From the sequence record KT454806: DNA of 64,000 nucleotides; one strand, 5' to 3'. Numbering within the stretch: position 1 is the stretch's first letter; each line of letters begins with the position of its first letter. Of the stretch, positions 60,716 through 62,373 are shown one piece after another. The translations under genes and the position numbers were made by a program. The notes beneath the pieces were generated by a model that worked only from the letters and a program-made list of their open reading frames with translations, did no database searches and was not told the DNA's origin. The stretch comes from Escherichia phage SUSP2.

Positions 60716-60793
60716 GGGAGATTGATGGTAATTGGTAAACCTATCTCGCTTAGAACGAGATGTTTGAGGGTTCGAATCCCTTGTCTCCTACCA
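60716..60793 (+). tRNA. tRNA-Leu (UAG), short variable arm
   Basis: Anticodon stem-loop atctcg-cttagaa-cgagat; A73 discriminator. Confidence 0.6.
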
Positions 60794-60800
60794 AATTAAT

Positions 60801-60876
60801 GCAGGTGTAGCAAAATGGTTATGCGGCTGACTCTTAATCAGTAAGACGATGGGTTCAATTCCCTCCACCTGTACCA
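60801..60876 (+). tRNA. tRNA-Lys (CUU)
   Basis: Paralog of 59262-59337; anticodon loop ctcttaa. Confidence 0.55.
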
Positions 60877-60882
60877 AACAAT

Positions 60883-60958
60883 GGGGATGTAGTTTACATG
60901 GTTAAAACATAAGTTTTGCAAACTTAAGTACAGGGTTCAATTCCCTGCTTCTCCACCA
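60883..60958 (+). tRNA. tRNA-Ala (UGC)
   Basis: Anticodon stem-loop taagt-tttgcaa-actta, T-arm caggg-ttcaatt-ccctg. Confidence 0.65.
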
Positions 60959-60964
60959 ATTAGT

Positions 60965-61039
60965 GCATCCATAGTTTAAACGGGAAAATTACAGTCTTCC
61001 AAACTGAGGTTGAGGGTTCGATTCCCTCTGGATGCTCCA
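60965..61039 (+). tRNA. tRNA-Gly (UCC)
   Basis: Acceptor gcatcca/tggatgc, anticodon loop cttccaa. Confidence 0.7.
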
Positions 61040-61045
61040 AACAAT

Positions 61046-61122
61046 GCTGCTTTCGTATAATTGGCTATTACACATCCCTTGTAAGGATGGAAATGCAGGT
61101 TCGAGTCCTGTGAGCAGCACCA
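61046..61122 (+). tRNA. tRNA-Thr (UGU)
   Basis: Anticodon stem-loop catcc-cttgtaa-ggatg. Confidence 0.7.
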
Positions 61123-61211
61123 CCACTTCAGAGGTCGAGTGAAAGACCGCTTGAGTCAACTGAAGACCGTAACAAATTCCACGGAGTTGAGTTAGCGGCA
61201 CAACTTCAGAC

Positions 61212-61286
61212 CTCTTTTCATACTCGCTTAGTTTATATGGTAAAGCCCCATCCTTACAAGTTGGTGAAGAAGGTTCAAGTCCTTCA
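61212..61286 (+). tRNA. tRNA-Val (UAC)
   Basis: Acceptor actcgct/agcgagt, anticodon loop cttacaa. Confidence 0.6.
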
Positions 61287-61288
61287 GC

Positions 61289-61366
61289 GAGTACCAATGT
61301 TCCAGTATCCCAATTGGCAGAGGATGCAAGCTCAAACCTTGTATTAGTGACGGTTCGAATCCGTCT
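61289..61366 (+). tRNA. tRNA-Leu (CAA), short variable arm
   Basis: Anticodon stem-loop gcaag-ctcaaac-cttgt; A73. Confidence 0.55.
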
Positions 61367-61554
61367 TGGAACACCAATTTTAGGAGATTCCTATGAAGCC
61401 TTATGGTAGACACGGTAAAGTTGAAATTGCAAGTTGTGGTTGCTGTGCTTCTCACGCTGGTGAAGAAGATTACTACAAGTGGCGTACAGACCATCGTAGA
61501 CGCTTTCTCAGAAGAGATAAGAAGAGAGCTAGACAGGAATCTCAAAAGAACATT

Positions 61555-61631
61555 GCAGAATTAGTTCAAATGGATAGAGCAGCAGCCTACGAAGTTGCTT
61601 GTTAGGGGTTCGAATCCCTTATTCTGCACCA
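61555..61631 (+). tRNA. tRNA-Arg (ACG)
   Basis: Acceptor gcagaat/attctgc, anticodon stem-loop gcagc-ctacgaa-gttgc. Confidence 0.7.
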
Positions 61632-61650
61632 ATTTAAAGAGGCTATTTAA

Positions 61651-62208
61651 ATGAGATATTTGAAGTATGCTTCATGGATTTTCCTAGCTTTGCTAGAGCC
61701 ATTTGCAGCAATCTTAGCAGTAATCTTAGCACCCTTTGTGGTTCCATTCTACAGTGAGAGGAAAGGTCACTTACCTTTTGGATTCAGATGGATGGAAACT
61801 TATGATAACCCGATTGACGGTGACAAAGGTCACGTTGAGCGATGGGCTAAGATTCGAAAGATTGGTAAGCTCGGTGTTTATATGCAGAGAGTTGGATGGC
61901 TCTGGAGAAACAAAGCTTATAACTTCTCTTACCATGTATTAGGAAGAGATGTAAAAGATGTTACTAAGTGGAAAGGTAATATCAACGTAAGTTCTAACCC
62001 TGAAGATAATCAGACAGGTTATCTCCTGATGTGGAACAGTAATGCTTGGGGTTTATTCGCTTTTATCCCGTCAATTAAAATCTTTGGTAAACAATTTTAC
62101 TGGAGAATTTATGTTGGTTGGAAACTTAAAAGTGTTGTCCCAGAAGAAAGAGCATTTTCAAGGGAAAGAATTATGTTGGCATTCTTTATTCATCCACTAA
62201 GAAAGTAA
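61651..62208 (+). CDS. membrane protein encoded inside tRNA island
   Basis: 185 aa; AAAGAGG RBS; hydrophobic N-terminus WIFLALLEPFAAILAVILAPFVVPF. Confidence 0.5.
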   Translation: MRYLKYASWIFLALLEPFAAILAVILAPFVVPFYSERKGHLPFGFRWMETYDNPIDGDKGHVERWAKIRKIGKLGVYMQRVGWLWRNKAYNFSYHVLGRDVKDVTKWKGNINVSSNPEDNQTGYLLMWNSNAWGLFAFIPSIKIFGKQFYWRIYVGWKLKSVVPEERAFSRERIMLAFFIHPLRK

Positions 62209-62216
62209 AGATTTAA

Positions 62217-62292
62217 AGGGGATTAGTTTACAAGGTTAAAACCTCGGTCTTTGAAATCGAAGAAGTTGGTTCAATTCCAACATCCCCCGCCA
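62217..62292 (+). tRNA. tRNA-Gln (UUG)
   Basis: Anticodon stem-loop tcggt-ctttgaa-atcga; unpaired 1-72. Confidence 0.6.
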
Positions 62293-62294
62293 AT

Positions 62295-62373
62295 GCTCCA
62301 TTACTCCAATTGGCAGAGAGGCCAGACTTAAAATCTGTGTTATGTATCGGTTCGAATCCGATATGGAGTACCA
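62295..62373 (+). tRNA. tRNA-Leu (UAA), short variable arm
   Basis: Paralog of 61289-61366; anticodon loop cttaaaa; A73. Confidence 0.55.

Follow-up and report, generated by a model that had tools for sequence, protein, structure and literature searches.

Leucine tRNAs without the long variable arm in the tRNA island of Escherichia phage SUSP2

The tRNA island of Escherichia phage SUSP2 raises the question of what a tRNA with a leucine anticodon but no long variable arm is, and whether it works as a tRNA-Leu. We analysed a stretch of 64,000 nucleotides (nt) from this phage (sequence record KT454806; hereafter the window), in which an earlier note had picked out three such tRNAs with the anticodons UAG, CAA and UAA, had folded them by hand as class I-like molecules ending in A73 and had set them against bacterial tRNA-Leu as normally long-armed. 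That norm applies to E. coli; it is too broad for bacteria at large, since tRNA-Leu with a short variable loop (type I) is native to many Actinomycetota (PMC6614811) and, as set out below, is common in phages. The three molecules do lack the long variable arm, and their sequence features make it probable that they are working phage-encoded type I tRNA-Leu that the host's leucyl-tRNA synthetase (LeuRS) would charge.

Both ARAGORN and the Rfam model RF00005 (gathering score, 29 bits) recovered the three genes on the plus strand: tRNA-Leu(UAG) at 60716–60793 (78 nt including the encoded CCA; 44.7 bits), tRNA-Leu(CAA) at 61299–61376 (78 nt, ending in A73-CCA; 44.0 bits) and tRNA-Leu(UAA) at 62295–62373 (79 nt, ending in A73-CCA; 47.5 bits). 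The UAG and UAA genes had been placed exactly in the earlier note, and the CAA gene, given there as 61289–61366, had been placed 10 bases too low. RF00005 covered each gene from end to end (model positions 1–71) at a score above gathering, and the discriminator A73 was read in all three by ARAGORN and by a position-by-position parse. The same parse gave variable loops of UGUUU (5 nt) in Leu(UAG), AUUAGU (6 nt) in Leu(CAA) and GUUAUGU (7 nt) in Leu(UAA); a class II tRNA has a variable region of more than 10 nt folded as a stem-loop, and the 5–7 nt of the phage tRNAs are unpaired. Each molecule combines a leucine anticodon, a short unpaired variable loop and an otherwise complete cloverleaf, which is what defines a type I tRNA-Leu. 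A wrong anticodon assignment and an overlooked long arm were both ruled out by ARAGORN and Rfam, as automated folding kept all three leucine anticodons and found no long arm, and together with the parse it bore out the class I-like fold that had been drawn by hand.

The D arm of Leu(CAA), UCC-C-AAUUGGCAGA-GGA, is of the leucine type, and Leu(UAA) is a paralogue of Leu(CAA) that shares its D loop and T arm and likewise has a Leu-type D arm. The D region of Leu(UAG) is 19 nt long, 1 nt longer than the standard 18-nt leucine D arm, and the extra nucleotide lies either between positions 9 and 10 or at a bulged position 11. This 19-nt variant is common to other phage loci (L006, L032 and L098 among the loci that we parsed) and is therefore not a local defect.

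Parsed in the same way, the E. coli K-12 genes leuZ (UAA), leuX (CAA), leuW (UAG) and leuQPV (CAG) are 85–87 nt long and have a variable stem-loop of 13–15 nt, in contrast to the 5–7 unpaired nt of the phage tRNAs. In other respects the phage CAA and UAA tRNAs and E. coli tRNA-Leu are alike: they have U8, a 3-bp D stem (10–12:23–25) followed by an unpaired 13:22, the D-region bases A14, A15, U16U17, G18G19, N20, A20a and A22, a variable region that ends in U48 and a T loop that reads UUCGAAU. A73 is common to phage and host, and the phage anticodons UAG, CAA and UAA match those of leuW, leuX and leuZ; outside the shared features the sequences are too diverged for blastn to link phage and E. 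coli tRNA-Leu. The bases of the LeuRS-type core (U8:A14, A15:U48, G18G19, A20a, U54:A58, G18:U55 and G19:C56) are present in Leu(CAA) and Leu(UAA), and also in Leu(UAG) with its D region 1 nt longer, all of this being a reading of bases and not of three-dimensional contacts.

The published leucine identity set of E. coli consists of A73, A15:U48, G18G19, A20a and the tertiary pairs that join the D loop to the T loop; leucylation shows no correlation with how the long arm folds or with its sequence, and arm-less variants of E. coli tRNA-Leu stay active (PMC9976931). For seryl-tRNA synthetase (SerRS), the long arm's size serves as the chief identity element (PMC9976931). E. coli LeuRS reads A73 and the shape of the elbow of the D and T loops (U8:A14, A15:U48, G18G19, A20a and U54:A58), and neither the anticodon nor the long arm; we infer that it would recognize the phage tRNAs by these features. 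Most other synthetases read the anticodon, and bacterial tyrosyl-tRNA synthetase (TyrRS) binds the long variable arm. As the arm lies outside the leucine identity set, it could be lost without loss of charging, and a short variable loop would then replace the long extra arm in a working tRNA-Leu that is leucylated by the LeuRS of E. coli or Salmonella. None of the six open reading frames (ORFs) of at least 600 amino acids (aa) in the window contains an aminoacyl-tRNA synthetase domain (LeuRS would be expected at about 860 aa). A phage-encoded LeuRS was rejected on the ground of these six ORFs of the window, and the host enzyme is therefore the one most likely to charge the phage tRNA-Leu.

Several observations weigh against this reading. 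The D arm of Leu(UAG) is irregular, with two G-C pairs and a mismatch or bulge. Its anticodon loop is CUUAGAA (C32, A37 and A38), where E. coli leuW has UUUAGGU (U32 and G37), so that the m1G37 site is absent and A37 stands in place of the host G37. RNAfold alone did not return a clean cloverleaf for Leu(UAA). E. coli LeuRS failed to leucylate the type I tRNA-Leu(CAA) of Streptomyces coelicolor and has been described as charging type II tRNA-Leu only (PMC6614811).

The short form recurs in related phages. The island is about 98% identical and syntenic to that of Escherichia phage phiSUSP1 (Suspvirus, Ounavirinae, Felix O1-like myoviruses), whose record already annotates all three genes as tRNA-Leu, and each of the three recurs in about 260–340 phage records. 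Leu(CAA) is 100% identical in at least 158 phage records, and Leu(UAA) shows 99% identity or more in 214, Felix O1 included. Leu(UAG) has 100% identity to its Felix O1 counterpart, 88.5% to the phiSUSP1 gene and 77% to a T5-like tRNA-Leu. All fetched Felix O1-, SUSP1- and Moogle-like loci that span the island carry the trio, at 77–79 nt, in full or reduced by deletion, and none of these loci contains a long-armed tRNA-Leu; the phage leucine tRNAs there are therefore all short. Across 5,426 complete E. coli genomes, a blastn search with Leu(CAA) gave no match, which rules out a close host or prophage copy, though not a distant one.

Between the window and phiSUSP1 (locus L001, 3809–3886), Leu(UAG) differs at 9 positions, 8 in the anticodon stem and 1 in the D stem. 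The anticodon stem is UCUCG/CGAGA in the window and CCAUC/GUUGG in phiSUSP1, and a U30:U40 mismatch that is common to the Leu(UAG) of SUSP1, Wc4 and T5-like phages is absent from the window's copy. In Salmonella phage FG1m (locus L008, 5999–6076), the tRNA-Leu is a chimera in which the 5′ part of Leu(CAA) is joined to the 3′ acceptor strand of Leu(UAA), and its acceptor strands do not pair; it apparently arose by a deletion between the identical T arms that removed Arg(ACG), an ORF with DUF7338 and Gln(UUG).

Erwinia phage phiEa21-4 (CAA, AAG and UAA), an Aeromonas Shenzhenvirus (three), Acinetobacter phage KissB and Yersinia phage P778 have short tRNA-Leu too. Pectobacterium phage Wc4, a member of the Ounavirinae, encodes a short Leu(UAG) together with an 87-nt long-armed Leu(UAA) (locus L004, 8238–8324), and both architectures therefore coexist in this subfamily. 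The island of Aeromonas phage AhP_Mru1 has tRNAs with the anticodons CUA and UCA (locus L005, 1900–1974 and 2796–2869) that are annotated as suppressor tRNAs.

Beyond these relatives, we scanned IMG/VR with a pattern that combined a D loop of the leucine type and an NAR anticodon with a short spacer before the T loop, and obtained at least 120 matches on contigs from many different samples. Among the pooled viral loci, 176 of 235 non-redundant tRNA-Leu were short, a share that is inflated by the choice of loci. A second scan that allowed any length of the variable region returned 23 short and 64 long tRNA-Leu among the matches listed (about 26% short), so that about one in four viral tRNA-Leu with such a D loop is short. 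Among the same matches, viral loci with a short tRNA-Leu are rich in tRNAs (median, 11 versus 5).

Within the 176 non-redundant short sequences, A73 was found in 174 and U48 in 175; the D-stem pairs were 97–100% paired with 4–6 pair types each, and 13:22 was unpaired in 98%. A15:U48 was present in every one of the 146 homologues whose D region is 18 nt long. tRNAs without an encoded CCA were parsed by means of a T-loop anchor. In sequences matched by the scan pattern, the D-loop bases were fixed by the pattern itself; 35 short sequences from outside the pattern showed the same D-stem, A73 and U48 features. For covariation, 55 diverse short sequences, including the three from the window, were aligned with MAFFT. 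The class I cloverleaf was paired in 97.9% of cells, compared with 56.8% in shuffles, and pairing fell to 35–44% when the partners were slid by 1–3 columns. Changes on both sides were seen in 20 of 20 cloverleaf pairs, and all four helices covary. A short cloverleaf that covaries and recurs in hundreds of phage records is therefore not a chance feature.

The other two class II families behave differently in the same viral loci, where 109 of 110 tRNA-Ser and all 43 tRNA-Tyr keep the long arm. As tRNA-Ser and tRNA-Tyr are long-armed in loci in which tRNA-Leu is mostly short, the arm is lost only from that class II family for whose synthetase it is dispensable. Use of the arm by SerRS and bacterial TyrRS would explain why tRNA-Ser and tRNA-Tyr retain it, and tolerated loss would be the simplest reading of why the arm went from tRNA-Leu.

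Loss of the arm might instead have been adaptive, through escape from host or prophage nucleases or toxins that target tRNAs and recognize the class II form or its variable arm, or through avoidance of mis-serylation by SerRS, and this would be compatible with a working tRNA-Leu. Some defence systems do act on tRNA-Tyr: Septu and Retron-Eco7 are described with cleavage in the variable loop of tRNA-Tyr (PMC13096335) and degradation of tRNA-Tyr (PMC12673091). The Gifsy-1 terminase of Salmonella fragments tRNA-Leu(PQTV) (PMC11610961). The Gifsy-1 enzyme, however, cuts the CAG isoacceptor in the region of its anticodon, the phage encodes no CAG tRNA, and no nuclease aimed at the variable arm of tRNA-Leu is described in the literature that we examined. 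The anticodon loop of the phage Leu(UAG) differs from that of the host at three positions (PMC12482277), and the share of short forms and the tRNA-rich loci in which they lie, both as counted among the matches listed, would also suit an advantage. Against it stand the long-armed tRNA-Ser and tRNA-Tyr of the same phages, and the solitary short tRNA-Leu on actinomycetotal chromosomes described below, for which evasion of phage defence is no obvious driver. We regard adaptive loss as unlikely.

Charging by another synthetase, or mischarging that would partly recode leucine codons in phage and host mRNAs, is considerably harder to reconcile with the data. The class I shape with leucine anticodons could invite it, as could the failure of E. 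coli LeuRS on the Streptomyces molecule. The isotype models of tRNAscan-SE 2.0, as published for the counterparts in Shigella phage Sf14, put leucine highest for all three (UAG, 67.4; CAA, 49.1; UAA, 60.2), with a narrow margin for Leu(UAG), whose top three isotype scores are 67.4, 65.7 and 63.4; the Sf14 paper makes no mention of the variable arm (PMC12482277). The anticodons are specific to leucine, the Leu-type D arm, A15:U48 and A73 are near-invariant among the 176 viral homologues, and a reading of the parse found no G3:U70, the alanine determinant, in the acceptor stems of the three window tRNAs. Mischarging is therefore, in our judgement, very improbable.

That the genes are decaying pseudogenes, or non-translational RNAs (decoys, for instance, or processing signals within a polycistronic tRNA transcript), can be given hardly any credence and was rejected on phage-wide conservation and helix covariation: their Rfam scores of 44–47 bits are below the 55–65 bits of many neighbours, a tRNA fragment and a weak tRNA-Tyr gene lie in the same island, and the FG1m chimera has mismatched acceptor strands, but the genes are 99–100% conserved in hundreds of phages, all four helices covary, no anticodon loop is damaged, each gene encodes its CCA and A73 hardly varies.

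If the three genes encode working type I tRNA-Leu, as we favour, the anticodon UAA would read UUA and UUG, CAA would read UUG, and UAG would read CUA and CUG; with a modified U34 or by superwobbling, UAG might also read CUU and CUC. Together the three anticodons could cover all six leucine codons. In the 63 ORFs of the window, leucine is encoded by CUU (28.6%), CUG (21.5%), UUA (19.4%), UUG (17.0%), CUC (7.9%) and CUA (5.6%), and the G+C content of the window is about 40%, with CUU, UUA and UUG as the codons that the phage favours; in Sf14, UUA and CUA are significantly commoner than in its host (PMC12482277). A role in supplementing or replacing the host tRNA pool for the AT-richer phage genome fits this codon usage. 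A further-reaching proposal, that enterobacterial LeuRS charges the phage type I tRNA-Leu efficiently, in conflict with the type II-only label published for E. coli LeuRS, that these tRNAs belong to an old mobile lineage shared by phage tRNA islands and actinomycetotal chromosomes and that arm loss was kept because it is advantageous, for instance by making the tRNAs insensitive to host factors that recognize class II molecules, strikes us as doubtful.

The tRNA island itself extends over 58111–63578 on the plus strand and comprises 25 tRNAs called by ARAGORN, a weak tRNA-Tyr and interspersed small ORFs of unknown function; all tRNA genes in it encode the 3′ CCA. As had been claimed from the sequence, its serine tRNAs are long-armed by ARAGORN and serve as internal class II controls: tRNA-Ser(UGA) at 60388–60476 (+) is 89 nt long and tRNA-Ser(GCU) at 63403–63495 (+) 93 nt, the latter with an Rfam score of 47.2 bits. 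The long-armed tyrosine tRNA that had been claimed alongside them exists as well, as an 88-nt tRNA-Tyr(GUA) at 58662–58749 (+), although its score is marginal: Rfam gives 22.8 bits, below the threshold of 29, and ARAGORN misses the gene by default and needs a relaxed threshold to call it. By reading of the sequence, its T stem contains a U:U mismatch, and phiSUSP1 annotates no tRNA there; it may be a weakened or unusual tRNA-Tyr. A tRNA-like fragment at 59004–59057 (+), in the gap between the Asp and Lys genes, matches only positions 9–63 of the Rfam model (31.3 bits), lacks the acceptor stem and is probably the remnant of a tRNA gene.

Directly upstream of the island, a 471-aa ORF at 56529–57944 (+) contains DUF2828 and DUF7788 and is annotated as 'RNA-binding protein' in the relatives FG1m and P778; its conserved position beside the tRNA genes may be meaningful. 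Within the island, a 70-aa ORF at 61393–61605 (+) overlaps the 5′ half of tRNA-Arg(ACG) (61555–61631), is a hypothetical protein in phiSUSP1 and has no Pfam match; it may be spurious.

The three leucine tRNA genes already carry a tRNA-Leu annotation in hundreds of phage genomes, and type I tRNA-Leu is known from mitochondria and Streptomyces. What is new is modest: these E. coli and Salmonella phages carry exclusively short-armed leucine tRNAs, their hosts only long-armed ones, and the short-arm architecture is common in viral tRNA islands. The searchable full-text literature yielded no description of a phage tRNA-Leu without the long arm, and the phrase 'type I tRNALeu' in one paper only (PMC6614811). 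The phage genes offer a natural test of two published views, that the long arm lies outside the identity set of E. coli LeuRS and that this enzyme charges type II only. They also matter for annotation, as isotype models trained on class II tRNA-Leu score such genes low, and compact leucine-accepting scaffolds might be useful in tRNA engineering. Real as it is, the finding is a rather ordinary curiosity: the kind of molecule is known, its setting apparently undescribed.

Beyond E. coli tRNA-Leu, three known systems bear comparison. In animal mitochondria, tRNA-Leu(UUR) and tRNA-Leu(CUN) are type I: they have no long arm, and their identity rests on A73 and A14 (PMC9976931). Unlike the phage tRNAs, they are organellar molecules of loose structure that a dedicated mitochondrial LeuRS charges, and nothing suggests direct ancestry between the two.

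The Actinomycetota offer a second comparison. A scan of species-representative genomes with the short pattern gave at least 123 matches, 108 of them tRNA-Leu and all but two of these 73–78 nt long. Most of the 108 listed are solitary in their 8-kb locus and overwhelmingly from Actinomycetota, with Nocardia, Rhodococcus, Gordonia, Mycobacterium, Corynebacterium, Arthrobacter, Bifidobacterium and Rothia among the genera in the matches listed; a minority of those listed lie in arrays of 5–26 tRNAs, and no Enterobacteriaceae appear among the matches listed. A73 and U48 are present in 81 of 81 solitary chromosomal genes, and A9 and the loop NCAGU in most. With a 5-nt loop and a D arm like GCC-C-AAUUGGCAGA-GGC, the solitary actinobacterial tRNA-Leu closely resemble the CAA and UAA tRNAs of the window and those of phiEa21-4; they are chromosomal, single-copy genes of high-G+C hosts, whereas the phage genes sit in a tRNA island. 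The type I tRNA-Leu(CAA) of S. coelicolor has been leucylated experimentally by its own LeuRS, an enzyme that does not use A73 and whose charging of the type I molecule needs the Streptomyces leucine-specific domain (PMC6614811). The variable loop of that tRNA is A44-C45-A46-G47-C48 (PMC6614811) and thus has C48, whereas the phage tRNAs keep U48; judged by these bases, the difference may explain why E. coli LeuRS failed on the Streptomyces tRNA.

Among phages, a review table with references to early aminoacylation and hybridization studies credits T5 with a tRNA-Leu (PMC4810235), which may accept leucine. The Leu(UAG) of the T5-like phage BF23 is 77 nt long, with A73, a 5-nt loop (GUUUU), 77% identity to the Leu(UAG) of the window and an identical T arm; it differs in its regular 18-nt D region and in the U30:U40 mismatch of its anticodon stem. 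The tRNA-Leu of phage T4 is long-armed. BF23, like SUSP2, has a tRNA island, and in this virulent enterobacterial phage the short UAG molecule is the only tRNA-Leu found in the comparable island.

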